DNA of 64,000 nucleotides. Origin: an uncultured delta proteobacterium. Its GTDB lineage: Bacteria; Myxococcota; Myxococcia; Myxococcales; Myxococcaceae. The stretch is from assembly GCA_963771175.1 (NCBI GenBank), contig CAVYSY010000039.1, positions 1 through 64,000 on the forward strand. The letters are read 5' to 3'. Of this stretch, positions 7,287-64,000 are shown one piece after another. Position 1 is the stretch's first letter, and every line of letters begins with the position of its first letter. The notes below the pieces were generated by a model. It was not told the origin of the DNA and made no database searches. It worked only from the letters and a program-made list of their open reading frames with translations. The position numbers and the translations under genes were made by a program.

Positions 7287-7345
7287 GCTCCTCCCGGTAC
7301 AGTGTCCGGGCGACGATCCCACCTACAACGGCCCGCCGTGAGGCG

Positions 7346-8999
7346 CTACTTGCGGTGAAGCGCCACGGCGGGCGTGGTCTCCGCCACCACGGCGAAGGCC
7401 GCGCCCCGCTCCTCCGCGGGCAGCAGCTCCAGACTCGCCCCGAAGGCCCGCAGCATCGACTGGGCGATCGTCAACCCGAGCCCCGTCCCTCCCCGCTCGC
7501 GCGCGGTGGTGAAGAAGGCATCGAAGATGCGCGCACGGTTGGACGCGGAGATGCCCTGTCCATCGTCCCGCACCACCACCCGTCCCCTCCCCTCGCCCGC
7601 CGCCACGTCCGCCTCCAGCCGCACGTGCACGCCCTCGCCCCCGTGCTGCGAGGCGTTGGTGATGAGCTGCCAGAGGATGTCCTCCAGCACCTCGGCGGGC
7701 AGTCCCAGCCAGAGCCCCGAGGGCACGGGGGCCACCTCCACCCGCGAGCCCCTCGGCCCGGGCGCGCTCCGCGAGGGACTCCAGCAGCGGCGCCAGCTCG
7801 GTGCGTGAGGGGCGGGCCACCAGCGAGTCCGCGCGGGCCAGCTCCAGCAGCCGCTGCACCAGCCGGGTGAGGCGCCGGGCGTCCGCGTCGATGTTGGAGA
7901 GGAAGCGCTCGCGCTGCTCGGGCGTCATCTGCTCGGCGCTGTCCCGCAGCAGCTCCACCGCGCCCTGGATGGAGGCGAGCGGCGTCTTGAACTCGTGCGA
8001 CACGTTGGCCGCGAACGAGCGGATGTACTGGTTGCGATCCCTCAACGCCGAGGCCATGCCGGCCAGCGACTCGGAGAGCTCGGCGAGCTCCTGCACCACC
8101 GGGCGAGCCACCGGCTCGAAGCCCTCGGGGGCACTGGCGGCGATGGCCCGCGTCTGCCGCACCAGGGCCCTCACCGGGCGGACCACCAGCGTGGCCGCGG
8201 CCAGCGACATCAGCGCCACCACGCCCAGCAGCACCAGCCCGGTGGCCGTGAGGTTCCACCGGTCCGCGTAGACGGCCTTGGCGAACGTCATGGGCGTGCG
8301 CGAGAGCACCACCGCGCCCCAGACCCGCTCGCCCTCGAGGATGGGCAGCACCACCGTCACCCGCACGCCGGTGTCTCGGCTCAGGGAGGCGAGCGGAGCG
8401 TCATCGGGATCGGCGAGCCGCTGGCGCAGCACGCTGCGGGGCTCGCCGCGCAGGGCCCGCAGCACCTCCTCGCGGGCCGCCAGGGTGGTGCCCAGACTGG
8501 AGATACCGCTGGTCGCCACCACCACCCCTTGGGTGTCCACCACGCGGATGCCGGCCAGGGTGGAGCGCGCCACCTCGAAGAGCAGCGGGGAGAGCCGCTT
8601 GCCGGCCCGCAGCGCACGGGGCTCGGCGGGGATGGCCGAGAGCGGGGGTGGCTCCTCCGCCGGAGGGAGCGCCTCGTCCGAGGCGCGGAGGGACGGGAGG
8701 ATGGGCCGCAGGTGTGCGGCCGGCGCAGCGAAGGGCCACTGCACCAGGCGGGACGAGCCATAGACCTCGGTGCCCACGTGCTCTCGCAACAGGGCGCGGT
8801 ACACCTCGGACACGACGACGCCCTGGGTGATGAGCTCGGTCTCCGTCTGGCGGATGAGCTGGTTGTCGTAGACGCGCACGAGCACCAGGCCGAGCAGCGC
8901 CAGCACGAGGGCCCCGAGCCCCACGGCCGAGAAGACCATCCACAGGCGCGGGCGGGCGCGCCTGGCGTCAGGGGAGCGCGAGCCGGTAGCCAAGGCCAT
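7346..8999 (-). CDS. Sensor histidine kinase (CreC-like: TM-periplasmic-TM-HAMP-HisKA-HATPase), frameshift near 7745
   Basis: H-box NVSHEFKTPLASI in ORF 7323..9020. N/G1/F/G2 boxes (LITNASQH, DDGQGI, IFDAFFTT, GGTGLGL) in ORF 7346..7741. Start position is approximate. Confidence 0.85.
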
Positions 9000-9669
9000 G
9001 CACCGTCTGGATGACTTCACCGCCCACCGCGGCGAACTTCTGCCGGATGTGCCGCACGTGGCTGTCGATGGTGCGGTCGCTCACCACGACGTCCTCGTAG
9101 ACGCGCGTCATCAGCTCGTCGCGGGTGAAGGCCTTGCCGGGCGCGCGCAGGAGCGCGGCGAGCAGGTGGAACTCGGTGACCGTGAGCACCACCTCGTGCC
9201 CGCTCCAGTACGCGCGCCACAGCTCGAGGTCCAACCGCAGGGGGCCACGCTGCAACACCTGGGCAGGCGTGGACGTGGGCGCCGCCGGGACCGCTCGAGC
9301 CCGAGTGCGCCGCAGCACGGCCTTGATGCGCGCCACCAGCTCGCGCGGGCTGAAGGGCTTGGTGAGGTAGTCATCTCCGCCCAGCTCCAGCCCGAGGATG
9401 CGGTCCACCTCGTCGTCCCGCGAGGAGAGGAACACGATGGGCACCTCGTGGGCGCGGCGCACCTCGCGGCACATCTCCAGCCCGTCCAGCTCGGGCATCA
9501 TGATGTCCAGGACGATGAGCGCGGGCACGGAGCGCCGCACCTGCTCCAGGCCGGCGCGCCCGTTGGAGGCCTGCTCCACGTGGAAGCCCGCCTGCGTGAG
9601 GGCGAAGTGCACGACCTCGCGCAGGTGCGGATCATCATCGACCACCAGGATGGACGGGCGTTCGCTCAA
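8968..9669 (-). CDS. OmpR-family response regulator
   Basis: ILVVDDD, LDIMMP and KPF receiver motifs. Winged-helix RTIDSHVRHIRQK...TVHGLGY. Confidence 0.95.
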   Translation of the reverse strand: MSERPSILVVDDDPHLREVVHFALTQAGFHVEQASNGRAGLEQVRRSVPALIVLDIMMPELDGLEMCREVRRAHEVPIVFLSSRDDEVDRILGLELGGDDYLTKPFSPRELVARIKAVLRRTRARAVPAAPTSTPAQVLQRGPLRLDLELWRAYWSGHEVVLTVTEFHLLAALLRAPGKAFTRDELMTRVYEDVVVSDRTIDSHVRHIRQKFAAVGGEVIQTVHGLGYRLALP

Positions 9670-9732
9670 GACACCCCGAACTCTGGAGCGACGGGCGGTG
9701 CGGATTCAAGCCACCCGAGGTAGAACCGGCCT

Positions 9733-11135: not shown

Positions 11136-11452
11136 CGCGGTGGCTCGCCGCCTTCGTGCTGACGCAGGTCCTCGAGGTGCCCCTCTACCTGCGTGCCGGC
11201 GCGAGCTGGCGCACCGCCTTGCTGGCCAGCACCCTGACCCATCCGGTGGTGTGGTTCGGCTTCCCCCTTCTGGGCCGATGGGGTCTCGGCTACTGGGGCA
11301 TGGTGGCCGCGGCGGAGACCTTCGCGGTAGGGGTCGAGGCGCTCTGGCTCTCCGCCCACGGGGTGCGGCGCGCATTCGCGTGGAGCCTGCTGGCCAATGC
11401 GACGAGCGTCGTCGGTGGCCTGCTGATCCGCTCCCTGTTCGGCTGGCCCTGA
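11132..11452 (+). CDS. Small membrane protein
   Basis: MTRWLAAFVLTQVLEVPLY...LTHPVVW...AETFAVGVEA...ANATS. ATGA overlap with the upstream gene. Confidence 0.7.
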   Translation: MTRWLAAFVLTQVLEVPLYLRAGASWRTALLASTLTHPVVWFGFPLLGRWGLGYWGMVAAAETFAVGVEALWLSAHGVRRAFAWSLLANATSVVGGLLIRSLFGWP

Positions 11453-11534
11453 GCCCAGGGGGCGGAAGGATAGATGTCCAAGTTCGGACGTTTCCATGGG
11501 AAGATGGGGCTCCCGCCTTCCGTACGCCCCCCGA

Positions 11535-12155
11535 ATGGATACGCCAGGTAGATCCGGCCCACCCCAGCCGCCGCTCGGCTCCGATGAGGAGCTGAAACAG
11601 CGACAGTCGCTCATCGCGCCAACGCACACCATGCGCGGGCTCTTCTTCAATTCCGTGCTGGAGGTGGTGCGGAGCCTGGGAGATGAGACCGCCGTGCAGC
11701 GCTGTCTGGCGGCCAGCGGGGAGACGAAGTTCCAGGATCTCGCCAGCTACCCCACCAGCACGTTCCTCCGGATGCTCTACACGGCGGGCAACCTCCTGAG
11801 CTCCAGGTTCGGCGGCTTCGAGGGGGCCCTGCGGCCGCTGGGCTCCCGGACGATGATGAAGTTCCTCGCCTCCGCCGCGGGCAAGGCCCTGCAAGGGGTG
11901 GCCGAGGACGACCCGCAACGGCTGATCGCCAACATCCCGCTGGTCCACAGGATGGTGTTGATGGGGGGAGACTGCACGGTGAAGTCGATGGGCTCGAACC
12001 GCAGTCTCCTCGTCATCGAGCGCATCTCCACCCCCGCGGCCTTCATCGAGGGCGCGCTGCAGATGACCCTCGAGGCCGCGAGGGTGCGAGGCGTGCGGGT
12101 GACCTCCCGACAGACGGGGACCCTGGACGCCGAGTTCGAGGTGTCCTGGACGTAG
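11535..12155 (+). CDS. DUF2378 / TIGR02265 myxococcal family protein
   Basis: TMRGLFFNSVL, SYPTSTF, FLASAAGK and EFEVSW signatures. Confidence 0.8.
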   Translation: MDTPGRSGPPQPPLGSDEELKQRQSLIAPTHTMRGLFFNSVLEVVRSLGDETAVQRCLAASGETKFQDLASYPTSTFLRMLYTAGNLLSSRFGGFEGALRPLGSRTMMKFLASAAGKALQGVAEDDPQRLIANIPLVHRMVLMGGDCTVKSMGSNRSLLVIERISTPAAFIEGALQMTLEAARVRGVRVTSRQTGTLDAEFEVSWT

Positions 12156-12170
12156 GTCTCGGGGAGCGGG

Positions 12171-14481
12171 TCAGCCGCCGAGCACGGTCGCGAGCGCCCG
12201 GTACTCGGGTCGCAACATCCGCTCGGCCTCGCTGCCGGCCACGACCACCGGGAGCATCGCATCCTCCAGCCCGGCCTCGGCCGCGAGCCTCACGGCGATG
12301 GGGGCCATCACCGTCGCCTCGATGAGCCGCTTCAACGGCCGGGCACCCAGCTTCGGATCGTAGCCGTGGCGGGCGAGCCAGGCGCGCGCCTCCGGCTCCA
12401 CCACCAGCCGCAGCCTGCGCCTCAGGAGCCCCGCTCGCGAGGCCGCCTTCTCCAGCTCCAGGTCGACGATCCGCAGCACGTCCGACTCCTTCAGGCGCCG
12501 GAACGGGATGACGTGGTCGATGCGGTTGAACAGCTCCGGCCGGAACGCCTGCCGGATGGCGCGCAGGAAGTCCTCCGCGCCGCGCTCGGCCCCGAAGCCC
12601 GCCGGCTCCGACTGCTCGACGCCGAGGTTGCTCGTCATGCAGACCACCGTCATCCGGAAGTCCACCAGCCGCCCGAGGCTGTCGGTGAGTCTCCCCTCCC
12701 CCAGGATGCCGAGCAGCAGATCGAAGACGTCCGGGTGGGCCTTCTCGATCTCATCGAAGAGGACGAGGGACATCGGCTGCTGCCGCACCCGCTCGGCGAG
12801 GCTGGTGATGCCGGGGCCCACCTCCATCAACCGCTGCGCGGAGCCGGGCAGCATGTACTCGGACATGTCGAGCCGGACCATCCGGTCCTCGTTGCCGAAG
12901 AGCGTGCGCGCGAGCTGCTTGGACAGCTCGGTCTTCCCCACGCCGGTGGGCCCGGCGAAGAGCAGCGTGCCCACCGGCTTCTCCGGATCATTGAGGCCGG
13001 CCTTGAACCGCGCGAGCACGCCCGCGGCCTGCTCGCAGGCCCGGTCCTGCCCGATGACGCCCTGCTTCAGGTGCGCCGCGAGCGTGGCCTGCTCGGCGGG
13101 GATCTCATCGCTGATGAGCTGGAGCGGCAGCCCGGTGTAGCGCGCGTAGGCCTCGGAGACGTCGCGTGGGTAGAGCGTTCGGGTCCTGCCGCGCTCGCCC
13201 TGCTGGTCGAGCCAGTCGAGGAACCGGTACGCCTTCCCCGGGAACAGGCTGTCGCGCTGGAACATCTCCAGGTGCCCGACGAGCTGCCGCAGGCCCAGGG
13301 GGTGGATGCTCACCCGGCTGCGCTTCGCCGACTGGTAGCGCTGCATCAACTCCGGCACCAGCGAGGCCGGGGGCGCCTCGATGCGGATGATGCGGAAGGG
13401 GCGCAGGGCCTCCGGGAAGCGCCGCTGGCAGCGCTCCAGCTCGGCCTCGGTGCACTCGGCGATGAGGGAGAGCTCCTCGCTCATCGCGGCCGGGAGGAGC
13501 AGATCTCCAATCGACGAGCCGTCCGGCTGCGGCGCCAGGAGCGAGGTGAGGCGGTCGACGTAGAGGTAGTCGTTCTCGAACGAGAGCGCGTCGATGATCT
13601 TCAGGCAGCGCTCCTGCCACATGCCCAGGTACACCATCCCGGCCACGATGCGCTCGGCACTGGTGCGCCAGATCTTCGGGAAGTGAGCCTTCTTGTCGTC
13701 CTTCGCCTCGCGCCGCCGTTCCGCGATCAGCCGCGCGAGCTGTAGCACCCAGCTCGTCTTGCCGACGCCCGGTCCCCCCACGAGGAGGAGCGACACCGGC
13801 GGCCGGTGCAGCACGTAGGAGAGGAAGGCCCCCAGGGTATGCCCGTCGTAGACCAGGGCCGGCTGCCGTGCGCCCAGCGCGCGCGAGGTCAGCTCCTCGC
13901 CGATCTGATCGAGCACCGGGGGCGGAGGCTCCTCGTGGTCGCCGCGCCGGGCGTCCCGCACCAGCTCGCCGGGGTCCCAGCTCCGGACGAACTCCTCGCC
14001 CTCGTGGCGGAAGTCGTAGAGCCCCTTGGGCTTCTCGCCGAGCAGCGCGGTGGTGAGCGCGTTCTGCAGCACCTCGCGCGCGATGGAGAGCTCCTCGATC
14101 ACGAACGACCAGCCGAAGCGAGGCACCCGCCACGCGCCAGGTGCCGCTCTCCATCTTCCCGTAGACGTACGTCAGCTTCAGCGGGACGAGCGCCTTGGCG
14201 ATCACCGGCCGCTTCTTGTGCACGGTCTGCGGATGCACCTCCACGGTGATCGTCCGCGCCTGCAGGGACTCCTCCCACAGGAAGCGCTCCAGCGAGGCGG
14301 CCTCGTCGAGCTGCATCTGCCGCACCTGCATCTCCAGCAGGGCGTAGACCTCGGCCTCGCTGGCGCCGTAGGCGGACGGTGGCGGGTCATCGAAGAAGCT
14401 GTCCCACACCGGGAGCAACTGCCCGGTCAGCCGGCCGTCGTGGTGGGTGGTGAAGTAGACGCGAAGGCTCTTGTCATTCAT
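12171..14481 (-). CDS. ClpA/B-like double-AAA+ protein #3, frameshift near 14135
   Basis: Start MNDKSLRVYF at 14481 (ATGA overlap). D1 GGPGVGKT and IVAGMVYLGMWQER. D2 GPTGVGKT, DMSEY, DEIEKAH, TSNLG, RPELFNRID and GARPLKR. Confidence 0.85.
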
Positions 14482-17400
14482 GGGTTCTGGCTCATCCGCA
14501 ACCGCCACAGGCTCGGCAGGGCCTCCCCGGGAGACCGGACCCGGTGGCTGCCGCTGTAGGTGAGCAGGTAGTCGTCGAGCTCCAGCACCGACACCTCGCC
14601 CGGACGGGAGGGCGGCTCGAAGCGATAGGCGCGGACCACCGGAGCGGCCGCCTCGGGATCCTCCGGCAACGGGCTCACGCCCGACTGGCGCGCCTCGTGG
14701 AAGGCCCGGAGCTTCGCGGCGTGCAGCTCGAGCAGCCTCGCCGGCTCGGGCGCGCTCGTCTCGTGGACGCGGACCTTCACCACCTCCGGGAGCCGACCCG
14801 AGGACTGCCAGACGTGCAGCCCACCCTCCCCCTCGAAGAAGGGACGCACGCCCGGACCCACCAACTTGATCGCGACGTGGACCGGCTCCAGTGGCGAGCC
14901 GTGGAAGTCCTGGAGCTGCCGGGGACCACCGGACACCACGGCGCCTCCGGGGAGATGGGCGGCGAAGCTCTCCACCTCGCCTCGTGCGCCGGCATAGGCC
15001 TCGCAGAGCCACGCCGTGAGCAGGGAGCCTGCGGCCGCGCCGTGCCGCCACTGCCCGAGCGGGAGCAGCTCCAGCGTCACCACGTGCTGATCCGGGCTGG
15101 AGAGCTCGCGCAGGACACGCTGCAGGAAGTAGACCTCCGCCAGCGCGTCGAGCATCTGCTCGCGGGAGACCGCCTTCACCGGCTCGAGGGCCCGCCGGGC
15201 GAAGAGCCGGATGCGCTGGCCCTCCCCATCTCCGCTGGCCGAGGAGCGGCGCTCCACCACCCCGAAGCGGTCGACCTCGATCATCTCCCGCGCCGCCTCC
15301 TCGGGAGCCCGCGCGAGGGACTCCAGCCGCGCCGCGAAGTCCTCCAGGTACAGCCGCATCGCGTCGAGCGTGTAGAGCGATCCGGCGTGCTCGCGCTCAC
15401 CCGCCTGGAGCCGCTCGAGGTGGAAGCGGACCTGCTCGGACAGCGTGCCGAGCGCGTGGCTGTGCCGCATCCGCTGCACCTCCTCGCGCGCCTCCAGTGC
15501 CTTCTCTCTCAGCCGGGCCACGGGCAGCGCCAGGAGCGGCTCGAGCGCGAAGCCCTCGGTGGCCGGCTCGCGGGACACGAGCGCGTCGGCCTGCACCTCG
15601 AAGCGGCCCTCGCGGGTGTAGAGCTGGAACAGCCGCAGCAACGACTGGGGCCCGCGGATGATGGCCTCGGAGAGGGCCTGACCGACCTTCTCCTCCAGGT
15701 AGCGCTTCAGCGGACGCGCGCCCAGTTGGGCGTCGAAGGCCTCCTCGACGATGCGGCGCTTCACCGCCTCGTCGGCGGACACGAAGATGTTGCGCGACGT
15801 CAACCCGTGCCGCGACAGCAGCCGCGCGAGCTCCTTCTCCACCACCTTCTCCCCCGACTCCCGGGAGAGCGGCGAGAAGTGCACGATGTGGTCGATGCGG
15901 TTGAAGAGCTCGGGCGGGAAGAACTCGCGCACCGCCCGGTCCGCGTCGAGCGCCAGGGCCCGGGCGTCCGGAGGGCCGAGGCTCACCGTTGGCTTCTGGC
16001 GGGCCCCGAGGTTGCTCGTCATCACGATGACGGTGTGCGTGAAGTCCGCCGTCTCGCCCGAGGCGTCGGTCAGCCGGCCCTCGTCGAACGTCTGGAGCAG
16101 CAGGTTGAGCAGCGCCGGGTGGGCCTTCTCGATCTCATCGAGCAGCACGAGCGAGAAGGGCTGCTCGCGGATGAGGCGCGTCAGGCGGCCCTCGGGTTGC
16201 CAGGCATCACCGGTGAGCCGCGCGACGGCGTCCGGCGTCTGGAACTCGGCCATGTCGAGCCGCACCATGCGGGACGCATCGCCGTACAGGTAGCCGGCCA
16301 GTGCGCGGGCGAGCTCCGTCTTGCCCGTGCCCGTGGGGCCGGTGAAGAGGTAGACGCCGTAGGGCCGGCGCGGATCCGTCAGCCCGGAGTGGATGCGCGC
16401 GATGAGATCGCACGCCACCTCCACCGCCGCCGGCTGGCCCATCACCTTGCGCGAGAGGGCCGCGTGCACGTCGGCCGGCTCCAGCTTCTTGTGGGGGTGG
16501 AGCAGGAAGTCCGGCAGGCCCGTCCTGCGCGAGAGGTGCTCGAAGAGCATCCCGACGTCGATATCCAGCCCCTTGCCCCCGTAATCGGCGGCCAGCTCAC
16601 GCAGCAGATCCAGCGCCTTGCCCGGCAGCGCGGCGCCCGAGAAGAGCGAGCTGGCCTGTTCGAGCAGGGCCGGGAAGAGCGGCGGAGACCAGCTGACCCG
16701 GTGTCGGCCCTCCAGCTCCCGCGCCTCGTGCAGCAACATCCGCAGCGTCTCGTCGGCGCTGGTGGGCCTCACGTGGAGCTGGGTGAAGAGGGCGGCGAAG
16801 GACGGTGCATCGGACTCGAGCCGCTGGAGCTGCTCCGGCGTCACCGTGCCGACGAGGGAGATCTCCCCGCGCGCGAGCGCCCCCTGGAAGAAGAGCGCGA
16901 GGTTGGCGTCACTGTCGCGCGAGCGGCCGATGCGGCCGAAGGCATGCAGGTCCTCGACGAGGAGGATGCGCCGCCCTCCCCTCGAGTCCTCGAGCAGCTT
17001 CAGGCAGCGCTGCTCCCAGTCGCCCACGTAGCTCATGCCGGCGATGATCCGCTTGCCGGCGATCGACCAGACCTCGGTCACCTTGTCCAGGTTGCGGTGG
17101 GTCTGGAAGCCCTCGGCCTCGAGCTGCTCGGCCACGAAGCGCTTGAGCAGGGTCCGCTTGCCGGAGCCGGGAGCACCGACGAGCAGCACCGGTGTGCGCC
17201 GCTCCCCACCGAGCAGGAGCTGGAGCTGCTCGCGATAGGGACTGCGTGGCATGCCAGTGTCGAGCGTGCCCTCCGCCGCCTGGAGGGTGAGGTTCGTCCC
17301 GAGGTTCTGCAGCACCTGGGTGCCCGCGCGCGGCTTCTGCTGCTTCTTGCCGTGCTTGTCCTTGAGCTCCAGGTCGTCCCAGGGGCCCTTCTTCTTCCCA

Positions 17401-17930
17401 AGCTCATCGAGCAGCGAGCGGGGCTGGGCCACGAACGCGAGCGCCTTGAGGCTGTCCTTGCCGTTGGAGCGCAGCTCCTCGAGCTGGTGCAGCTCCAGCG
17501 CGGCCCAGGCGCGGGTGAAGAAGAGCTTCGCCTGCTCCTCCAGGCTGGCCGAGGGATCGATCGGGAACCACTCGTCCTGGCGCAGGGGGTGGTAGGCGAT
17601 GGTCATCTCCTCGCCACGCGTGCGCCAGCGCGGCTCGAGGATCAGCGGGAAGACGCCGGACAGGCGCCGCGTCTCGGCCCCGGCACGCACGCGCTTGAAG
17701 TCGAGCTCCAGCCGCACCCGCTGCAGGTAGAGGCCGCGCGGGAGCTGGAAGTACGCCAGCTCCCGGACCGGCAGCTCGCCGATGATGCTCCGCAGGTCGT
17801 CCACGAGCTTGCGCTGCAGCTTGACCGTGCTCCGGCCCTCTCGGCTGCGGGTATGGGGGCCGAGCCCGATCGTGGTCCAGCGGAAGCCGGAGGAGTCCCG
17901 GCTCTGGTAGACGGCGAGGGTGAGGTTCAT
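14478..17930 (-). CDS. ClpA/B-like double-AAA+ protein #2 with C-terminal release-factor-like domain
   Basis: 1150 aa. D1 GAPGSGKR, D2 GPTGTGKT/DEIEKAH/GARPLKR. C-terminus has IKLVGPGVRPFFEGEGGLH and VVRAYRF. Confidence 0.85.
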   Translation of the reverse strand: MNLTLAVYQSRDSSGFRWTTIGLGPHTRSREGRSTVKLQRKLVDDLRSIIGELPVRELAYFQLPRGLYLQRVRLELDFKRVRAGAETRRLSGVFPLILEPRWRTRGEEMTIAYHPLRQDEWFPIDPSASLEEQAKLFFTRAWAALELHQLEELRSNGKDSLKALAFVAQPRSLLDELGKKKGPWDDLELKDKHGKKQQKPRAGTQVLQNLGTNLTLQAAEGTLDTGMPRSPYREQLQLLLGGERRTPVLLVGAPGSGKRTLLKRFVAEQLEAEGFQTHRNLDKVTEVWSIAGKRIIAGMSYVGDWEQRCLKLLEDSRGGRRILLVEDLHAFGRIGRSRDSDANLALFFQGALARGEISLVGTVTPEQLQRLESDAPSFAALFTQLHVRPTSADETLRMLLHEARELEGRHRVSWSPPLFPALLEQASSLFSGAALPGKALDLLRELAADYGGKGLDIDVGMLFEHLSRRTGLPDFLLHPHKKLEPADVHAALSRKVMGQPAAVEVACDLIARIHSGLTDPRRPYGVYLFTGPTGTGKTELARALAGYLYGDASRMVRLDMAEFQTPDAVARLTGDAWQPEGRLTRLIREQPFSLVLLDEIEKAHPALLNLLLQTFDEGRLTDASGETADFTHTVIVMTSNLGARQKPTVSLGPPDARALALDADRAVREFFPPELFNRIDHIVHFSPLSRESGEKVVEKELARLLSRHGLTSRNIFVSADEAVKRRIVEEAFDAQLGARPLKRYLEEKVGQALSEAIIRGPQSLLRLFQLYTREGRFEVQADALVSREPATEGFALEPLLALPVARLREKALEAREEVQRMRHSHALGTLSEQVRFHLERLQAGEREHAGSLYTLDAMRLYLEDFAARLESLARAPEEAAREMIEVDRFGVVERRSSASGDGEGQRIRLFARRALEPVKAVSREQMLDALAEVYFLQRVLRELSSPDQHVVTLELLPLGQWRHGAAAGSLLTAWLCEAYAGARGEVESFAAHLPGGAVVSGGPRQLQDFHGSPLEPVHVAIKLVGPGVRPFFEGEGGLHVWQSSGRLPEVVKVRVHETSAPEPARLLELHAAKLRAFHEARQSGVSPLPEDPEAAAPVVRAYRFEPPSRPGEVSVLELDDYLLTYSGSHRVRSPGEALPSLWRLRMSQNP

Positions 17931-20900
17931 CGCTTCACCCCCTGGAGCTTGTCGAGCGCGAAGGAGAAGGTGCCCTCACGATCGAGCCCATCGAGGAGCT
18001 CGAGCACGGAGAGGTGTTCGAGCAGGACCCGCTCGAGGTTCCGGAAGTAGTCCGGAGTGGCGAGCGTCAGCTTGCGATCGCCCTCGAACAGGGAGAGCAC
18101 ATCATCGGGGAGGTGCTCGCGCACGGGTGGCACCAGCCGGAGCTCATGGGGGACCTGCGGCGCCGGGGGCGCGATGGCTGGCAACTCGAGCTCCTTCTCG
18201 TACAGGTGGGTCCGCATCGCCACGGGCAGGACCGTGAGCAGGACTGGCTCGTCCTTCTCCAGCGGGGGGTAGCGGTGCAGTCCGGCCTCGAGCGCGAGGA
18301 AGGCCCCGGCGTTCAACCCCGCGACCGACAGCAGCACCTCGCGAAAGGCACGGGAGGGCTCGACGAGCGCCTTCCTCAGCTCCTCGGCGTTGAGGACCGC
18401 GCCCCACTTGCGCTTGCGGTCGCTGCTCTTGCTGGTCACCGACGGGCGTCCCCCGATCGACCACCCGCGCCGGGGCGCGTCCGCGAGCAACGGCAGCAGG
18501 TAGCGTTCGAGGGCGCGCCCGTCCTTGGACTCCTGGAGGATCAGCGTGATGGCGTCCCGGCGGGGCAGCAGCGCGAGCAGCATCGAGGGCATCAGCTGAC
18601 GGAGGCCCCGGAGCTGCTCTCGGGCGTCCTCCACGAAGGGGCCGGCGTCCTGCTGCTCGAAGAGGGCCATGAGTGCCAGCTCCTCGGCGGCCACCAATGC
18701 CGCGCGCAACCGCTGCGCCTGCGTCCAGATCCCATTGAGTCGGTGGTGCGACTCCTGGAGCTTCGCCACCGAGGAGGCCTCGGGGCCCCGCTTCTCCTCC
18801 CGGTCCCCCTGGGAGAGCTGGGCCACCAGGAAGCCGAGCTCCTCCTTGAGCTGCTCCACCGCGTCGAGCTGGAAGAGCGAGTCCATGGCCCGCCGCTCCG
18901 CCTGCAGCTCGCGCACGAGGCCAAGCTGGTTCCGCGCCGACCTCGGGCTCCCCTTGTGCAGCTCCACCGCGATCCCCTCCGGGCGCGGAGCGATGACCAC
19001 GCGACCGCCCTGGGCATCCGGTCCCGACGAGGAGAGCGCGCGGGCGATGGGGACGACGAGCTGCTGGTCCAGGTGCCTGCGCATGGCTCGGGCGCCATAG
19101 GCCTCCTGGTAGCCCGACGTGGCGAGCGTGGTGGTGATCTCCGGCGGCACGTGGAGCGAGATGCCTCGCTGGAGCAACCCGCGCCGCAGCCGCAGTTTGT
19201 CCACACCGAGCCTCGCCACCTCCGCCGCCTGCTCGGACGTGAGCGGGTGGAAGGGAATGAGCTGATCGATGCGGTTGATGAACTCGGGCCGGAAGCTCCG
19301 GTGCACCTCACGCAGGTAGTACGAGCTGTCGTCCACCGCGGTCGCGCCGATGCCCAGCGTATTGCGCCGGTGGGCCGCCCCGAGGTTGCTGGTCATGATG
19401 ATGATCGCGTTGTGGAACCAGGCCGTCTGCCCGCGAGCATCCGTGAGCCGCCCTTCCCCGCAGACCTGCAGGAGCAGATCGAAGACGGCCGGGTGGGCCT
19501 TCTCGATCTCATCGAGCAGCAGCACGCAGAAGGGCTGCTGGCGGACCCGCCGCGTGAGGTGGCCCTCGCCCTGGGTGTTGCCCCGGATGAGCCGGTCGGC
19601 GGCCCAGGCGTCCATGTACTCGCTCATGTCGAAGCGGAACATCCGCTCCGCCGAGCCGAACAGGAACGTGGCGAGCAGCCGCGCGAGCTCCGTCTTCCCG
19701 ACGCCGGTGGGGCCCACGAAGAGGAAGGTGGCCAGTGGCTTGCCCTGCGGCTGCAGGCCCGCCTTGACCATGCACAGCGTCTCCACGACGCGGCGCACCG
19801 CCGTCTCCTGGCCGATGAGCTGGCGGCGGAACCACGCCTCGAGCTCGGGCGCCAGCAGCGCGCGATCCTCGCGAAGGAGGAACTCGGGGACGCCGGTCTT
19901 GAGGCTGAAGAGCGAGTACACCCGCTCCCGGGTGAGCTCGGGCACCTGACCGCTGGCGGTGCGCTCCTGCTGCAGGCCCGCGCGCATCTCCTCATAGAGA
20001 CGCACCGCCTTGCCGGGTAGCGCGCGGCCCGGGAGGTAGCGCTCGGCCAGCTCCACGAGCGGCTCCACCGCGGCATCGGCCAGCGTGGGCCGGGAGGCGT
20101 CCGCCTTTCGCTGCCAGGCCGCCCGTGCCCGCAGGGCCTCGCGGGTGTGCTTCGCCCCCAGCGGCTCCAGGCGCACGCACGAGAGGGTGGCGAAGAGGCC
20201 CGGCTGCCGGCTCTCCAGTAGATCCAGCGAGTCGGGGGTGAGCTCGCCGAGGAACCGCACCTTGCCCTCCTCCAGGAAGGGCTTCATCGCGCCGGGGATG
20301 TCGATGGACTCGGAGGAGTGCTGCGCGAGCAGCTCGCCGAGGTTCTCGAAATAGAGGACGGCATCGAGGTCCTGCGCCGCGCGCATCACGCGCAGCACGC
20401 GCTCCTGCCACTGGCCGAAGCCGGACATGCCCGCGAGCAGCCGCGAGCCGCTCGTCGCGTACACCCGCCGCTGGCGGCCGGCCTTCCGCTCAGCGCGCAG
20501 CCACGCGTGGAGCAGCTCCGTCTTGCCCGCCAGCTCCGGGCTGACGAGCAGGACTCCCTGTCGCTTCTCGCCGCCGAGCAGGCTCGACAGGAGCGCGAGC
20601 TCGGTGTCCCGGCCGACCAGCGGAGGCCCATGCCGGGCCTCCTCGCGCTCGTGGAGCTGCGTGGAGACGGTGAGGAGCACCTCGTGCGCCTGGTCTCGCT
20701 TGAGCTTCTCCTGCTGCTTCTTCTTCGCCTGCCGGGCCTTCTCGCTGAACACGTCCTGGCGCCTGAGCTGGAGCGGGACGGTCTCCAGCGTCACCGATCT
20801 TGGCGGCAGCAGCCGCAGGTACTCGTGGGCGGTGGGCTCGCGCGCGGCGAGCATCCGCTCCACGTCCGCGCGGACGATCTCCCGGACATCCTGGTTCCTG

Positions 20901-21277
20901 CCCACGTGGACGGTGTGGTCGATCGCGGGGACGAAGACCCACGTCTCCTCCGCCAGGGGCACGACGACGGCGGTCATCTCCACGGTGGTGGGCTTGACGA
21001 GGCGCTTGGGCAGATCGGCGCGCGGCGCGAGGATCTCCAGCGTCTCCAACCGGACCTGCTCCGGCAGGGAGAAGCGGGCGAGGACCTCGGGCTCCGCCTT
21101 GGAGAGGTACTCCTCGAGGAACAGGCGCTGCTCGGCGAGGCAGGCCTCCCGGGTGGCCGCGTGGCTCGTCAGGGCCGGCGCGGCCACGGGAAACGCCTGG
21201 TGGTCCCCGCTCCAGAGCTGGAGACAGAGGAGTGGCGTGGAGAACTCGAGGATCCCTGGCGCGTGGGTGGGGGCCAT
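17927..21277 (-). CDS. ClpA/B-like double-AAA+ protein #1 with C-terminal release-factor-like domain
   Basis: 1116 aa. D1 SPELAGKT, D2 GPTGVGKT/DEIEKAH/RPEFINRID. C-terminus has RRGWSI...EVLLSVAGLNAGAFLALEAGLHRY. Confidence 0.85.
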   Translation of the reverse strand: MAPTHAPGILEFSTPLLCLQLWSGDHQAFPVAAPALTSHAATREACLAEQRLFLEEYLSKAEPEVLARFSLPEQVRLETLEILAPRADLPKRLVKPTTVEMTAVVVPLAEETWVFVPAIDHTVHVGRNQDVREIVRADVERMLAAREPTAHEYLRLLPPRSVTLETVPLQLRRQDVFSEKARQAKKKQQEKLKRDQAHEVLLTVSTQLHEREEARHGPPLVGRDTELALLSSLLGGEKRQGVLLVSPELAGKTELLHAWLRAERKAGRQRRVYATSGSRLLAGMSGFGQWQERVLRVMRAAQDLDAVLYFENLGELLAQHSSESIDIPGAMKPFLEEGKVRFLGELTPDSLDLLESRQPGLFATLSCVRLEPLGAKHTREALRARAAWQRKADASRPTLADAAVEPLVELAERYLPGRALPGKAVRLYEEMRAGLQQERTASGQVPELTRERVYSLFSLKTGVPEFLLREDRALLAPELEAWFRRQLIGQETAVRRVVETLCMVKAGLQPQGKPLATFLFVGPTGVGKTELARLLATFLFGSAERMFRFDMSEYMDAWAADRLIRGNTQGEGHLTRRVRQQPFCVLLLDEIEKAHPAVFDLLLQVCGEGRLTDARGQTAWFHNAIIIMTSNLGAAHRRNTLGIGATAVDDSSYYLREVHRSFRPEFINRIDQLIPFHPLTSEQAAEVARLGVDKLRLRRGLLQRGISLHVPPEITTTLATSGYQEAYGARAMRRHLDQQLVVPIARALSSSGPDAQGGRVVIAPRPEGIAVELHKGSPRSARNQLGLVRELQAERRAMDSLFQLDAVEQLKEELGFLVAQLSQGDREEKRGPEASSVAKLQESHHRLNGIWTQAQRLRAALVAAEELALMALFEQQDAGPFVEDAREQLRGLRQLMPSMLLALLPRRDAITLILQESKDGRALERYLLPLLADAPRRGWSIGGRPSVTSKSSDRKRKWGAVLNAEELRKALVEPSRAFREVLLSVAGLNAGAFLALEAGLHRYPPLEKDEPVLLTVLPVAMRTHLYEKELELPAIAPPAPQVPHELRLVPPVREHLPDDVLSLFEGDRKLTLATPDYFRNLERVLLEHLSVLELLDGLDREGTFSFALDKLQGVKR

Positions 21278-21372
21278 TCACCCGGCATCCTATGCCGCCG
21301 TACCTGAAGAGTGGACAGGGCATCGATCGCACGCGTGATGAGGTACGCTGGCCGCAGGAGGCGTACCTCATC

Positions 21373-22434
21373 ATGCCGCACGAGAACCCGAGCATCTTCC
21401 AGTCCGCGATCGACCGGCGCCTGCGTGACGCACTGCTCGCCGACAGGAATGCCCAGCGAATCGGCACCCTCGCGAGGCGGAGGCGACTGCTGACGGACGC
21501 GCTCCGGCTGACGCGCTCGGTGGCTCCGGCGGTCGTGGATGCGCTGGCCGCCTGTCGGGAGACCCTGGGCCACGAGGGTCCCGTGGAGCTGTTCGTCCAG
21601 CCGGATCCGAGGTTCCACGCCGCGGCGGTACGGGCCCCCGGAGAACCTCCCGCCATCGTCCTCGCCTCCCGGCTCATCGAGACGCTCACCGAGGCCGAGC
21701 TGCGCTTCGTCATCGGCCACGAGCTCGGCCATATCCTCGAGCACCTCGCCCTCCCCCTTCCGGTCGGCGTCGAGGACCTGGAGGCAAGGCCCCTCCCGCG
21801 CGCCACCGTTCTCGCGATGGATGCCTGGAACCGGGCGGCGGAGGTCAGCGCCGATCGGGCGGGGCTGCTGTGCGCCAAGGATACCGAGGCCGCCGTGAGT
21901 GCCTCGTTCAAGCGGGCCAGCGGCTTGTCCTCCGCGTCCGTGAAGTCCGAGCTGGCCGCCTACACGCGCCAGGTGGACGCGCTGCTGTCCTCGCCCGCGG
22001 CCCGAGAGAAGCCGCGCGAGGACGATGACACGCTCGGCTGCTTCATCACCCACGCCTTCAGCCCCCTGCGCATGCGTGCCCTCGTGGCGTTCTCCCGGTC
22101 GAGGACCTTCCTCCGGGTGGCGGGGCACTACGCCAGCGAGGAGGGCCGTCCGGAAGAAGAGATCGACGCGCTCATCGCGCGGGACTTCCGGGAGTTGGAG
22201 CCCTCGGGTCTGGCGGAGAAGCTCCCGTCGGGAGACATGCTCGCCCGGCTGTGTCAGGAGACGTCCCTCTCGGAGCGGGCCCGGTTGGTGCGGCACCTCA
22301 CCCTGGTGGCGGCCGCGGAAGGCCCGGTGAGCGACGCGTGGTTCCTGGAGTTGCGACAGGTGGCCGAGGCGCTCGCCATCCCCCTGTGGCTCATTGACGA
22401 GGCGCTTCGCGGCGCCACCTACCCGATGGATTGA
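21373..22434 (+). CDS. M48-family zinc metallopeptidase with C-terminal TerB-like region
   Basis: AGGAGG RBS before the ATG at 21373. ELRFVIGHELGH, RAAEVSADRAG and THAFSPLR motifs. C-terminal LVAAAEGPVSDA...LRQVAEALAI is TerB-like. Confidence 0.75.
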   Translation: MPHENPSIFQSAIDRRLRDALLADRNAQRIGTLARRRRLLTDALRLTRSVAPAVVDALAACRETLGHEGPVELFVQPDPRFHAAAVRAPGEPPAIVLASRLIETLTEAELRFVIGHELGHILEHLALPLPVGVEDLEARPLPRATVLAMDAWNRAAEVSADRAGLLCAKDTEAAVSASFKRASGLSSASVKSELAAYTRQVDALLSSPAAREKPREDDDTLGCFITHAFSPLRMRALVAFSRSRTFLRVAGHYASEEGRPEEEIDALIARDFRELEPSGLAEKLPSGDMLARLCQETSLSERARLVRHLTLVAAAEGPVSDAWFLELRQVAEALAIPLWLIDEALRGATYPMD

Positions 22435-25400
22435 TGATGCCTTCCCAGAGCGGTCCGATCGCGATCGTCGCCTCCGCGTGCCGATTGCCGGATGCCGCCA
22501 CGCCCGAAGCCTTCTGGAACAATCTGATCGCGGAGCGCATCTCGATGCGCTCGCCCCCCGAGGGCCGCTGGCCGGATCACCCGGACGCACGGGTCGGGTC
22601 GTTTCTCGATGATGTGCGTGGGTTCGACGCGGCGTTCTTCGGAATGAAGGGCGGCGAGGCCGAGTTCACGGACCCACAGCAGCGGCTGCTCCTGGAGACC
22701 GCGCATGAGGCGCTGGAGCGCGCCGGGTTCGCGGGCCCCCGCCGGCGCAACCGGCGCACCGGTGTCTTCGTGGGCGTCGGTCAGTCTGATTACCAGGAGG
22801 GGATCCTCCGGCTCCTATGGGCGGGCGTGCCCGTGCACCCCAGCGCGGCGGTGGGGAACCTGCGGAACCTCATCCCCTCCCGCGTCTCGCACGTCCTGGA
22901 CCTGTCCGGCCCCTCGCTGGCCATCGACACCGCGTGCTCGTCATCGCTGGTCGCCCTGCACCTCGCCTGTGAAAGCTTGAACCGCGGCGAGTGCGAGCTC
23001 GCGCTGGCCGGGGGCATCACGCTGAACCTCACCCCCACCGTGTTCACCGTCCTCTCGCGCGCCGGGGCGCTGTCCCCCTCCGGCAGCATCCGCCCGTTCG
23101 CTCGGGATGCGGACGGCATCGTGCTCGGAGAAGGTCTGGGTGTGGTCGTCCTGGAGCGGCTCGATGACGCGCTCCGGCGGCACGCTCCCATCCTGGCGGT
23201 GGTGCGCGGAAGCGCGCTCAACAATGACGGTCGCACCTTCAACCCGATGGCTCCCAATCCCGCCCGGCAGATCGCGGTGATGCGGGAGGCGTGGCAACGG
23301 GCCGGGCTCGACCCGGCGAGCGCGAGCTACCTCGAGGCGCACGGAACCGGCACCCGTGTCGGGGACTCGATCGAGGCGCGCTCGGTGTCGGCGGTCTTCG
23401 GAAGGCCGGGCACGAACGAGCCGCTCGGGATGGGCTCGGTGAAGGGCAACGTCGGGCATCTCCTGAGCGCCGCCGGAATGGCCAGCCTGCTCAAGGTCGT
23501 GTCCGCGCTCCAGCACCGCACGCTCCCGGCCTCGGTGCATGCCGGCTCGGCGGCGCCGGAGCACGGACTCACATCGGCCGGCATCGCCCTGGTGGACTCG
23601 CCGCGTCCGTGGAGCGGGCCGGAGCCCCTGCGCGCCGGCATCAACGGCTTCGGGTTTGGCGGAACCAACGCCCACGTCATCCTGGAAGAGCCACCCGAGC
23701 GCCCTCCCCGCCCGCGCTCCCCCGGCACGCGCCCCCTGCTGTGGATGGTGTCCGCTCGGACCGACACGGCGCTCCGAACCACCGCGCGGAACCTCGCGTC
23801 CTGGCTCCGGGAGAATCCGGAGGTGGATCTCTCGGACGCCGCCCTGTCCGCGAGTGTCTCGCGAGATCCGGGCCCCCATCGGCTCGCACTCGTCGGGGCG
23901 GAACGGGTTCCGGAACGGCTCGAGACCTGGGCGGCTGGAACACCCGCCGAGGTCCTCCACGGCGTGGTCCCCGACCGCGTGGCGAGGAGGAAGGCGCGCA
24001 ACGGAGCCTCGTTGGAGGGGGCCTCGGCGGAGGTCGCCGCGAGCGCGTTCGTCGAAGGAGAGGCGTTCGACCGGCTCGCGTGGGACGAGGAGCCGGACCG
24101 CGAGCACGTGCCGGTGCCCACCTACCCCTTCGAGCATCGGCCGTGGTGGGTGCCCGATGCGCCCCCGGCCACGGCCTCGGCGTCGCGGCGGATCGAACAT
24201 CCGCTTCTGGTGGACGAGCTCGAGCTCACGATGGACCGGGCGGTGCTCCTCGCGCGCATCGTGCCCGACGACCCGCTCGTCTCCGAACACGTCGTACATG
24301 GAGTGCACCTCCTCCCGGGCGCCGCGTGCATCGAACTGATGCGTGCGGCGGCACGGCACGCACTGGGCACGGAGCCCGCGGGCCTCGCGGAGGTCACGTT
24401 CGCGCGGCCCGTCCGGGTGGACGACGAGGCCTGTACGGTGCGCGTCGGGGTCGAGCGTCGGGGTGATGACCTCGAGGTCTCCTTGTCGGACGAGGACGGC
24501 GGTGTGCTCGCTCGGGCGAAGGTGCTCCGCACGAAGCGGGCGCCGGCAACGGCACCGGGGAGCGATGAGCCTCGCACGCGTGGGTTCGAGCCCTCCGCCC
24601 TATACGAGGGACTCCGCGAGCGAGGGATGGACCACGGGGCTTCACTGCGCGCCGTCCGGGCCATCGAGCTGGGCGAGCGGACCGCGCGCGCGGAGCTCTC
24701 CCTGCCAGAAGAGGCACGGGGTCGAGCGTTCGGCGTGCATCCCGCGCTGCTCGATTCCGCCATGCAGCCGATCGCGGCACTCCTGCTGGCCCACACCCGT
24801 GAGCGGGAGGGCCTGTACGTGCCGATGCATGTGGAGCAGGTCGAGCTGCTCGGCCCCATCCCCGACCGCTGCGCGGCGCTGGTGACGCTGAACGGAGATC
24901 CGCGGGCACCGGGCGATGTCGTGCAGTGCGAGGTGGAGATTCGCGTCGGGAACGAACCGAGGCTGCGCCTTCGCGGGCTGCGCCTTCGCCGCGTCACGGC
25001 CGAGGCACTCCAGGGCACCGAGCGCGATGTCCGGGCCTGGATGCGCGAGGTGGTCTGGCGGGAGGCTCCCCCGGAGCAGTCCCAGCCTCCCCGGGGACGT
25101 TGGGTCGTCGTGCCCGCGGCACATCCGGCGAGCCCCCAGGTCGCCCGCCGCCTGCGCGACGCGGGAGCGACATGTGAGCGCGTGGACCCGTCGGAGCTGA
25201 AGGCGGCGCTCGCCCGGGGTGAGACCGAAGGGGTCGTGTTCCTCGGCCCGACGGGGAAAGCGACCCAGCCCCCGGATGTGGCCTCGTTCGATCAGGCCCA
25301 GCGGGACGGAGCCCTGGCGCTGCTCGCGGTCGCCAGAACCTGTGATGCGCTCGACCGGGATCGACGTCCCGCGCGCCTGCTCGTGGTGACCGCCGGCGCG

Positions 25401-32247: not shown

Positions 32248-33357
32248 TCACTGCAGGAACGGCGTGTTCTCGGCGAAGTACTCGTGGCTGTCCGCGTTGT
32301 CGAGCGCGTTGGTGGGGTTGGTGAGCGCCAGGTTCTTGGCGCCGGCCTGACCGTAGACGTGGTCATCCGTGCCGGCCACCGCCGTGAAGTGGCTCATCTC
32401 GTGGATGAGGGTGCCACCCTTCGAGTCGGTGCCCGTCATCGGCGCGGACCAGAACGCGCTGCACACGTAGATGATGTACGGCTTGGCCGGGTAGACGTAC
32501 GCGTAGTAGTTCTTCTTGCAGCTGCAATCGACCGTGATCGGCTTGGTGTCGAAGGCGTCCTTGATGGCGACGAAGTGGGTCTGCGCCGTGCTCCAGCCGC
32601 TGCTCGAGAAGGCGCCGAACCAGGTGGAGTAGCGCTGCGTGCCGGACGGGGTGGTGTTGGTCAGGTAGGCGTTGGAATCATCCGCCATGGCCGAGGCGGC
32701 GTTCAGCGCGTCCATGATCGTGGCCTGCTGCGTGGTGGAGCACCGGCCGGAGAACGACACGCTGCTGGTGAGCTGGGCGACCGGCCCATCCGAGGGGACC
32801 TTGCTCGCGCGGCCCTCGATCCACAGGCTCACGTCGTTGGACTTGAGCAGACCCGTCCTGGCGCTGGAGCCGTGCGCCTGCGCCGCGTCCACCTCGAAGC
32901 GGATGCTGTAGTTGCCGCTCTGCGACAGGTCATACAGACCCAGGTCCACCGTCTTCGTCAGGCTCTCGCCAGGGGCCAGGGTGAGGAAGTCGTCCGAGCG
33001 CGCCGCGGGACGCTTGTAGTGGGGGCCCTCGAAGGCCACGGACTGGCCACTGCGGGTCACCACGAACAACGACTCCTCCAGCTCCTCGGAAGGCGCGTAC
33101 CACTTGAGCAGGCTCACCGGGTGACGCGAGGTGTTGGTGAGGGTGACCGTCACGGCCGCGCTCTCGTTGGCACCGATGACAGAGGCCTTGGCGGACAGGC
33201 TCACCGCCACATCCCCCTTCTCACGCAGCTCCTGAGCCTCAGTGGAGAGCTCATCGCCGGTCGAGCCCACGTCACCCGGCGCACCGCACGCGCCGAGGAG
33301 GGACACGCTGGCGAGGCCAGCCAACCACTTGAAATTGCCACGAAGGGTCTTGCTCAT
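32248..33357 (-). CDS. M35-family (deuterolysin / peptidyl-Lys-like) metalloendopeptidase lipoprotein with propeptide
   Basis: Lipobox LLGAC, HEMSH, GTDD, NADSHE. Start MSKTLR preceded by AAGGAAG. Confidence 0.9.
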   Translation of the reverse strand: MSKTLRGNFKWLAGLASVSLLGACGAPGDVGSTGDELSTEAQELREKGDVAVSLSAKASVIGANESAAVTVTLTNTSRHPVSLLKWYAPSEELEESLFVVTRSGQSVAFEGPHYKRPAARSDDFLTLAPGESLTKTVDLGLYDLSQSGNYSIRFEVDAAQAHGSSARTGLLKSNDVSLWIEGRASKVPSDGPVAQLTSSVSFSGRCSTTQQATIMDALNAASAMADDSNAYLTNTTPSGTQRYSTWFGAFSSSGWSTAQTHFVAIKDAFDTKPITVDCSCKKNYYAYVYPAKPYIIYVCSAFWSAPMTGTDSKGGTLIHEMSHFTAVAGTDDHVYGQAGAKNLALTNPTNALDNADSHEYFAENTPFLQ

Positions 33358-38676: not shown

Positions 38677-38824
38677 TGTGATGCGGACAGGCGGCGAGTC
38701 AAGGAATCCGGCTGTCGAAATTTCCGGGCAGGGCGACGGGCTCGAAGAGGCACAACCCGGCAGCGTCGGTGCCGGCCGAGAGCGACCGTTGCATGGTCGA
38801 CAAGGCACCACAGACATTTCGCAT

Positions 38825-44933: not shown

Positions 44934-64000
<19,067 letters not shown>

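Follow-up and report, generated by a model that had tools for sequence, protein, structure and literature searches.

In the 64,000-nucleotide stretch of Myxococcaceae DNA analysed here (contig CAVYSY010000039.1; hereafter the window), three ClpA/ClpB-like AAA+ genes, #1, #2 and #3, lie in a row on the minus strand. The tail of #2, as predicted structures and profile comparisons show, is a module of class-I release factor (RF) type in which domain 1 and the domain-2/4 sheet are kept and which is predicted to be catalytically dead. The original prediction had called a diverged, GGQ-less RF-like domain on #2 from motifs alone; an AlphaFold2 model, Foldseek and VIA-align now identify the tail as a class-I RF, and we regard its RF fold and homology as very probable.

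An RF-like fold in the tail of #2

We modelled the last 381 residues of #2 (the fragment; protein residue = fragment residue + 769) with AlphaFold2 from an alignment with 27 homologues, three of them at 37-39% identity and most >69% identical (alignment A1), and the last 357 residues of #1 from an alignment with 34 homologues reaching Sorangium, Minicystis and Labilithrix (alignment A2). No templates were used. The #2 model reached a pLDDT of 78.9 (~90 over residues 200-380) and a pTM of 0.75, and the #1 model a pLDDT of 89.8 and a pTM of 0.86. When the models were searched against 350,542 PDB chains with Foldseek, there were 41 matches for #2 and 39 for #1 at E ≤ 0.001, and the rows listed, to rank 50, were all RF1, RF2 or mtRF1/mtRF1a, with PrfH at ranks 46 and 48 for #1. 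TM-scores of the RF matches were low (0.2-0.4) because the multi-domain arrangement is mobile.

VIA-align matched the #2 model to free E. coli RF2 (1gqe) with a Z of 13.8 over 268 residues (model 34-380 vs. chain 6-364) and to ~40 ribosome-bound RF entries at Z 10-12, the first unrelated row being at Z 6.9. Model residues 165-381 superimposed on RF2 114-364 with a root-mean-square deviation of ~3.0 Å over ~140 residues, and the structural alignments extended to model residue 380-381, opposite RF residue ~364. The RF chains have ~250 residues in this region compared with ~215 in the model and ~140 aligned; the missing ~100 residues correspond to the GGQ domain. A Foldseek-independent scan of 48,161 representative PDB chains was again headed by mtRF1 (Z 12.1), RF1 (11.4), RF2 (11.3), RF1 (10.8) and PrfH (8.9), and the three other chains at Z ≥ 8 were helical hairpins placed on model residues 34-132. 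The #1 tail scored Z 13.0 to both RF1 (1rq0_B) and RF2 (1gqe) over 266 residues, and its long helices also drew unrelated helical proteins at Z 9-10.5. Both models thus contain the domain-1 helical bundle and the domain-2/4 sheet fold of a class-I RF, with the bundle by itself being weak evidence for domain 1, given unrelated helical matches at Z 7-10.

The predicted anatomy of the #2 module is given in Table 1. Its domain-1 helices (H35-53, H56-73, H81-105 and H109-120 in the model) belong to the RF-like module, and the start of the module therefore moves to ~15542-15623. The strings on which the original prediction relied (VVTLELLP, LTAWLCEAYAGA, VAIKLVGPGVRPFFEGEGGLHVW, VVKVRV, VVRAYRF and LDD) are all in the #2 translation, and its span, 14478..15090, was correctly placed, covering residues ~948-1150 plus the stop codon; it fell short at the upstream end, by ~530 nt. 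The domain-2 part of the sheet carries LLTAWLCEAYAGA and VGPGVRPFFEGEGGLHVW. What is left of domain 3 is a single helix (H294-314) followed by a conserved loop, G..PLPEDPEAAAP, with a family consensus of G..PLP(E/x)(D/N)P in which G315, P320 and P323 are conserved. The domain-4 part is modelled as strands E329-335, E345-351 and E356-362 and helix H365-377, with a pLDDT of ~90. In the #1 model, domain 3 is cut to a Pro-rich linker.

A sequence link to true RFs was found through a fourth gene. A genome-wide scan for the Pfam family PCRF returned prfA, prfB and one other locus, none of them on the window's contig. When 66,829 six-frame open reading frames (ORFs) of the genome were searched with a hidden Markov model (HMM) of the #1 tail, one other ORF was found, C26:383689-386178 (E 8.5e-5), which was also the best non-self match of the #2 HMM in the same set (E 0.14). 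This ORF (L007 7690-10182), spread over at least 3 frames in the assembly, encodes a Clp-like ATPase and is the fourth AAA+/RF-like gene of the genome; its tail scores 49.7 bits to PCRF against a cut-off of 24. The same tail finds 120 proteins, 110 of them of 900-1000 amino acids (aa), and all except the last, partial one have precomputed PF03462, AAA_2 and D2-small assignments. Members of this 940-aa family are annotated as 'PCRF domain-containing protein' or 'AAA family ATPase' and occur in Myxococcus, Corallococcus, Stigmatella, Hyalangium and Archangium. A profile of 59 of their tails (<80% mutual identity) matched the genome's own RF2 at E 2.3e-11, with RF1 following at E 2.8e-9. The match to RF2 covered domains 1 and 4 as well as the E.G.H strand, and the GGQ loop of RF1 fell in a deletion of the profile.

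Profile-profile comparison (hhalign) connected the #2 tail to the 940-aa tail (87.9% probability, E 3.2e-6, 50 columns spanning the domain-2 strand) and to the #1 tail (70-79%, E 1.7e-5 to 4e-5, ~212 columns), and the #1 tail to the 940-aa tail (47.4%, E 1.9e-4, 85 columns). Reversed profiles and 20+20 column-shuffled profiles used as controls all stayed at ≤0.9% probability, with none below E 0.06. The C termini of #1 and #2, whose kinship the original prediction had staked its case on, are thus homologous by hhalign, and both are class-I RFs by predicted structure. Together these comparisons show that the #2, #1 and 940-aa tails are diverged paralogues with an RF2-like ancestor. As a lead only, language-model features of #2 residues 930-1150 were closest to PCRF clusters (0.90, 0.87 and 0.85). 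The closest named clusters to the domain-2/4 part are 'PCRF domain-containing' proteins of 199-286 aa from Pseudomonadota and Cyanobacteriota, with RF-1 in just 0-40% of their members; free-standing GGQ-less PCRF proteins may exist outside the myxobacteria.

The G......E.G.H strand could be aligned across five families, including the genome's own RF1 and RF2. The equivalences drawn earlier to the RF elements L.rMY and E.GvH hold in this alignment, and VVRAYRF, compared earlier with IRsY, forms the strand with which the modelled domain-4 part opens. E-x-G-x-H occurs in every one of the 119 proteins of the 940-aa type, in 41/41 close homologues of #2 and in 53/54 of #1. Down to relatives of 23-29% identity, fragment residues E266, G268, H270, R331 and R334 do not vary, and the family shows little or no variation in the PLP.(D/N)P loop. 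The loop that follows the E.G.H strand reads SPF in RF2, PAT in RF1, SSGRLPE in #2, PPL in #1 and DEEKRQR in the 940-aa type, and the five-family alignment places a deletion of the PxT/SPF loop in #2. The call of a GGQ-less domain was borne out: none of the 41 close #2 homologues has GGQ in its last 400 residues, and the occurrences elsewhere (3/54 #1 homologues, 5/119 of the 940-aa type and 9/150 family representatives) are scattered and unaligned. Because both the GGQ domain and the PxT/SPF loop have been lost, the #2 module is predicted to be unable to hydrolyse peptidyl-tRNA or to read stop codons in the manner of RF1/RF2.

Several results weigh against this assignment. Identity to RFs in the structural alignments is just 11-19%, and the tail structures are themselves predictions. 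Pfam gave no PCRF or RF-1 match to #2 at E ≤ 1 (whole protein) or E ≤ 10 (tail), only a chance match to COG5_C (E 0.12); the PCRF match of the #1 tail (13.3 bits, E 0.072) is below the cut-off of 24. BLASTP between the #1 and #2 tails was uninformative (best E 0.23), phmmer with both tails against PDB sequences gave 0 matches, and a 13-sequence #2 profile found no RF among PDB sequences, just the unrelated PaoB at E 0.17. Because sequence-only tools are blind in this way, the case for RF kinship of #2 rests on predicted structure and profile-profile links. The RF shape could in principle have been drawn by AlphaFold2 or reached by convergence in a tail that is not RF-homologous, given the missing direct sequence match, the shallow #2 alignment (28 rows, mostly >69% identical) and the readiness of the helical parts to draw unrelated matches. 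We consider this very improbable, since two template-free models from different alignments agree and their alpha/beta part matches RFs only, the transitive chain of sequence matches has shuffled controls, the same invariant strand motif is aligned in all five families, and the AAA+ parts fall in one clade with the PCRF-positive 940-aa family.

Table 1. Positions of the AAA+ genes and of the predicted parts of their RF-like modules in the window
Feature	Position	Strand	Residues	Remark
AAA+ #1	17927-21277	minus	1116 aa	
AAA+ #2	14478-17930	minus	1150 aa + stop	ClpA-like two-ring ATPase, N-domain, predicted C-terminal RF-like module
AAA+ #3	12171-14481	minus	651 aa in Pfam numbering	no RF-like tail
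RF domain-1-like helical bundle of #2	15264..15542	minus	~797-889, fragment 28-120	AlphaFold2 + 1gqe alignment
Variable insertion of #2	15174..15263	minus	fragment 121-150	pLDDT ~52; partly deleted in relative L039
RF domain-2-like part of 2/4 sheet of #2	14754..15164	minus	fragment ~154-290	holds LTAWLCEAYAGA and VGPGVRPFFEGEGGLHVW
E-x-G-x-H motif of #2, EGGLH	14814..14828	minus	fragment E266, G268, H270	E.GvH of RF1/RF2
Domain-3 remnant of #2	14640..14753	minus	fragment 291-328	one helix + conserved loop, no GGQ
RF domain-4-like part of #2	14481..14639	minus	fragment 329-381	VVRAYRF, LELDDY, C-terminal helix
RF-like module of #1	17930..19000	minus	last 357 residues of 17927-21277	AlphaFold2, Foldseek, VIA-align
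D2 module of #2	~15900-16200	minus		
D2 module of #1	~18950-19250	minus		
D2 module of #3	~12600-12900	minus		

The ATPases and their distribution

Upstream of the tail, #2 is a two-ring ATPase in which Pfam identifies AAA_2 (residues 522-681, E 3e-39) and ClpB_D2-small (688-760, E 1.2e-13); no Pfam family was found beyond residue 760 or, likewise, past D2-small in #1. The NCBIfam models for ClpA (315.9 bits, residues 193-760) and ClpB (318.7 bits) both match #2 below their equivalog cut-offs of 993.15 and 1232.1. Because ClpA aligns over 193-760 in one unbroken stretch, #2 appears to have no ClpB-type middle domain. For the motif analysis we used the familiar definitions of the Walker motifs, the GYVG pore loop and the ClpP-docking [LIV]-G-[FL] loop. 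Both D1 and D2 of #2 carry GxxGxGK P-loops, and Walker A (GPTG.GKT) and Walker B (LLDEIEKA) of D2 are canonical in #1, #2 and #3. In D1 the P-loop is kept (reading GKR in #2 and SPELAGKT in the window's #1), as is a ClpB-like pore loop, AGM.Y.G.W.ER, and the acidic pair of Walker B is degenerate (FEN in #1, VED in #2 and VDR in #3). The GYVG pore loop of D2, present in the genome's ClpA, ClpB and ClpC-like proteins, is substituted in #1, #2, #3 and the 940-aa type.

At the position of the LGF of the ClpC-like protein, all four lineages have an [LIVAM]-G-[FIL] tripeptide, where ClpB has none. It reads LGI, LGF or IGL in #1, VGI or VGF in #2, AGF, LGF or MGF in #3, and IGF, FGF or VGF in the 940-aa type; the window's own #2 has VSL at this site, unlike the VGI of its relatives. 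On sequence grounds we consider the tripeptide a candidate ClpP-docking loop, and two clpP genes are present elsewhere in the genome. The three proteins also have in common an N-terminal domain of ~120-200 residues (20678-21277 in #1, 17331-17930 in #2 and 14134-14481 in #3, minus strand), exemplified in #3 by MNDKSLRVYFTTHHDGRLTG. Pfam at E ≤ 10 assigned no family to these N-domains save a chance match to DUF2368 (E 0.012), and a protein-atlas feature search with them gave no usable match.

As the original prediction had stated, #3 has no RF-like domain. It stops 35 residues past ClpB_D2-small (Pfam 545-616 of 651), and its open frame ends 35-56 residues past the D2 profile in 11/11 related loci. 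Our trees, which would fit either a loss of the tail in #3 or a tail never gained, disagree on the place of #3: FastTree with 16 sequences makes it sister to #1 (0.83), and IQ-TREE with 41 sequences puts it beside all RF-bearing lineages as their sister. In the latter D2 tree (LG+G4), #1, #2, #3 and the 940-aa type are each monophyletic, and together they form a clade (UFboot 100) that leaves out the two outgroup sequences, ClpB and the ClpC-like protein of the same genome. #2 groups with the 940-aa type (88), as a sister lineage rather than nested within that family. From this clade and these groupings, a single origin of the AAA+-RF fusion appears likely.

A profile built from 13 #2 tails (A3) was searched against 1.84 billion representatives and found 224 matches at E ≤ 1e-3, of which 171 had E ≤ 1e-10 and 115 had E ≤ 1e-30. 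Among the 150 matches listed, 78 were proteins of 1026-1240 aa with the match at the extreme C terminus, 6 were of 600-999 aa and 66 were shorter than 600 aa; all seven of the short forms inspected start inside D2-small and look like fragments rather than stand-alone modules. The #2 tail was present in 35/401 sampled Myxococcota genomes (29/171 in the window's own family and 5/20 in family f14), and the trio is patchy within the phylum, being found in 2 of the sampled families. The 940-aa-type tail was present in 146/401 genomes, a count that includes one unpublished genome (G196), with 144/171 in the window's own family and 0/20 in f14. A related-locus search with the #2 tail alone gave 6 loci. 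In 9/9 loci for which both flanks were present the order is #1-#2-#3, also in relatives of only 23-37% identity, and the flanking genes differ in all six related loci scanned.

The #1 stop overlaps the #2 start, and the #2 stop the #3 ATG (14481-14479), as ATGA in both cases. Third-position G+C content (GC3) is 0.93-0.95 across the three genes, in a window of 69-73% G+C. The #2 reading frame looks real, with a GC3 of 0.93 and no indel in 14478-15700 in contigs of four public runs. The frame of #3 is split by one extra assembly base near 14130 (14125-14150, minus strand), which puts its first ~117 codons out of frame with the remainder and makes tblastn of a relative's #3 return two frames. The base is missing from 5/5 contigs of 4 public runs, and the split is probably an assembly indel, not a pseudogene. 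Out-of-frame stretches also occur in prfB (C40:171579-172703) and ClpA (C11), and the genome assembly looks indel-prone.

The closest homologues of the window's proteins are named from Archangium, Cystobacter, Hyalangium and Vitiosangium. A promoter and terminator scan of 11300-22600 found 0 promoter-like sites and 1 terminator-like site, with no excess over shuffled sequences. A DUF2378 gene (11427-12152, plus strand) is convergent with the end of #3; farther downstream of #3 (7326-9705, minus strand) are genes for an OmpR-type response regulator and a histidine kinase. The window also holds large hybrid polyketide synthase-nonribosomal peptide synthetase (PKS-NRPS) genes at 22398-32186 (plus), 40390-49525 (minus) and 51390-63998 (minus), in which KS, DH, KR, ACP, A, C and AT domains occur together with a TubC_N docking domain and a terminal reductase. 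Between them is a block with an M35 peptidase gene (32251-33444), dehydrogenase and FAD-oxidase genes and a gene for a PBP2-like transpeptidase (36811-38835). We considered a self-resistance link between the AAA+ trio and the PKS-NRPS genes and dropped it, since the adjacency is not kept in other genomes.

Proposed ribosome docking and other possible uses of the module

The reading we prefer for the dead RF-like module is that it would mimic a tRNA or RF and bind the ribosome at the A site and the factor-binding site. An N-terminal fusion would be sterically possible, since the N terminus of domain 1 faces solvent when RFs are bound to the ribosome. Docked in this way, the module would hold a #1-#2-#3 hetero-oligomer on ribosomes, where the ATPase might then remodel, split or extract something. 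Coupling to ClpP would also be possible because all four lineages carry the tripeptide at the ClpC-like LGF site. This proposal, a dead RF module that docks on the ribosome and tethers an unfoldase, is an inference that we hold tentatively, as not quite an even bet. Docking appears to be favoured by the fact that three AAA+ lineages have long kept the tRNA-mimic architecture entire, and by the RF2-like motifs that the 940-aa family still shows in domains 1 and 4. That the trio functions together is suggested by the overlapping ATGA junctions, the conserved gene order and the shared D2 clade.

Other observations tell against docking. That ribosome binding has been retained is an assumption, with the codon-reading and release elements gone, and the #1 and #2 tails are extremely divergent. 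The RF domain-4 motif D.RTG...VL.G.L..FI, clear in the 940-aa family, is unrecognisable in #1 and #2. Classical threading through D2 is uncertain without its GYVG loop. No recurring translation, RNA-repair or mobile-element genes were found in the flanks of the six related loci. There is also a precedent for an RF2 derivative that left the termination pathway and stabilises RNA: plant PrfB3, which has lost both SPF and GGQ and stabilises petB mRNA (PMC5897788).

Many of these same observations would fit a module exapted off the ribosome altogether, for RNA binding, as a substrate or adaptor domain, or for autoregulation, as a lid or collar on the ring's D2 face. GGQ, PxT/SPF and the domain-4 RF motif are lost in both tails, Pfam is blind to the #2 tail, RF identity is no higher than given above, no translation genes lie nearby, and the model is compact, in the 'closed' RF conformation, with free RF2 (1gqe) as its best full-length match; PrfB3 would be a case in point. 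We regard exaptation as a doubtful but serious possibility. It does not readily explain why the whole RF architecture (domain 1 and the 2/4 sheet) was long kept in three separate AAA+ lineages or why the less diverged 940-aa family keeps RF2-like domain-1 and domain-4 motifs, and a full tRNA-mimic shape would be unexpected if a generic binding surface sufficed.

The RF shape without RF chemistry, the candidate ClpP-docking tripeptides and the patchiness of the trio (35/401 genomes, 2 sampled families) would also suit a decoy or sensor, in which the RF mimic captures RF-targeting proteins such as toxins, phage factors or PrmC-like RF-modifying enzymes for the unfoldase or ClpP. This seems improbable to us: PADLOC returned generic AAA+ matches only (DolB, PDC-M37B) and no defence assignment, no defence-island or mobile-element context was found in the window or the six related loci, the 940-aa type is near-universal in one family (144/171) and in that respect housekeeping-like, and the GGQ loop that PrmC methylates is absent.

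Myxobacteria have large genomes and multicellular development and remodel their proteome on starvation. Bacterial ribosomes are rescued or recycled by tmRNA-SmpB, ArfA/ArfB, RqcH, HflX and RRF/EF-G, and we know of no AAA+ unfoldase aimed at the bacterial ribosome through a built-in release-factor mimic. If the module docks, the trio would offer an entry to a new ribosome quality-control, recycling or turnover pathway in bacteria; if it does not, a translation factor would have been domesticated to serve a Clp machine as an adaptor domain. In both cases, the Pfam-negative tails of proteins annotated as 'AAA family ATPase' can conceal recognisable folds. The 940-aa family already carries the automatic label 'PCRF domain-containing', and the #1 and #2 tails are unlabelled. 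A full-text literature search, with most subscription journals outside its scope, found no fusion of PCRF or an RF to an AAA+ or Clp protein. Burroughs and Aravind, in their survey of RF paralogues in bacteria, cover RF1, RF2, ArfB and PrfH; in the text consulted, AAA+ appears only as Cdc48 with Vms1, with no AAA+ fusion mentioned (PMC6514570).

Comparison with known systems

The #1 and #2 modules resemble RF1 and RF2 (PF03462 + PF00472) in their three-part architecture, the domain-1 bundle and the domain-2/4 sheet (Z 10-13.8), as well as in the G......E.G.H strand motif and the Arg-bearing first strand of domain 4. They differ in lacking the GGQ domain 3 and PxT/SPF and in falling below Pfam thresholds, and the #2 module is fused C-terminally to a ~770-residue AAA+ ATPase, not free-standing.

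Like the #2 tail, PrfH has a domain-2/4-like core and is one of the specialised RF paralogues; the structural match to it is weaker than to RF1/RF2 (Z 7.5-8.9). As described in the survey, it is an RtcB-coupled RF homologue that retains the catalytic glutamine and has no domain 1 (PMC6514570). The #2 module shows the reverse pattern, keeping domain 1 and losing GGQ, and is fused to an ATPase; there is no RtcB among the scanned neighbours of the window's trio. PrfB3, compared by description only, is likewise RF2-derived and without SPF and GGQ, and differs in being eukaryotic, plastid and free-standing, with no ATPase fusion.

In design logic, and by analogy only, the closest counterparts pair an RF-shaped A-site ligand with an ATPase motor. 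Pelota/Dom34, whose Dom34 has no catalytic Gln, works with ABCE1 as such a ligand. Vms1 acts with the AAA+ protein Cdc48, according to the survey (PMC6514570). These systems use an unrelated RF fold (the aeRF1 superfamily) and other ATPases, in separate rather than fused proteins. A covalent counterpart of Pelota-ABCE1 and Vms1-Cdc48 can be imagined in which a hetero-oligomeric #1-#2-#3 assembly, possibly ClpP-coupled, would insert its dead RF modules into the A site when ribosomes are vacant, stalled or hibernating, and either split them or extract and degrade a bound protein or nascent chain, with the 940-aa protein as the simpler single-gene form. This fuller scheme seems to us rather unlikely.

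As ATPases, the proteins are like the ClpA/ClpC Hsp100 proteins in having AAA_2 in D2 with D2-small, no M-domain, canonical D2 Walker A and B motifs and a candidate ClpP-loop tripeptide. They are unlike them in having no Clp_N, a degenerate D1 Walker B, a replaced GYVG and scores far below the ClpA/ClpB equivalogs. A relative on both counts is the 940-aa family (P0102-P0220, with the genome's own copy at C26:383689-386178), which has the same kind of ClpA-like two-ring AAA+ part, a C-terminal GGQ-less RF2-derived module, a place in the same D2 clade, a D2 pore loop that is likewise not canonical, and an [IVF]GF tripeptide. Its tail is far closer to RF2, with a shortened domain 3 and the RF domain-4 motif kept; it has no ~200-aa N-domain, is encoded by a single gene rather than a trio and is far more widely spread (146/401 vs. 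35/401). #2, by comparison, has 1150 aa, of which ~200 form an N-domain, and its tail is Pfam-negative.

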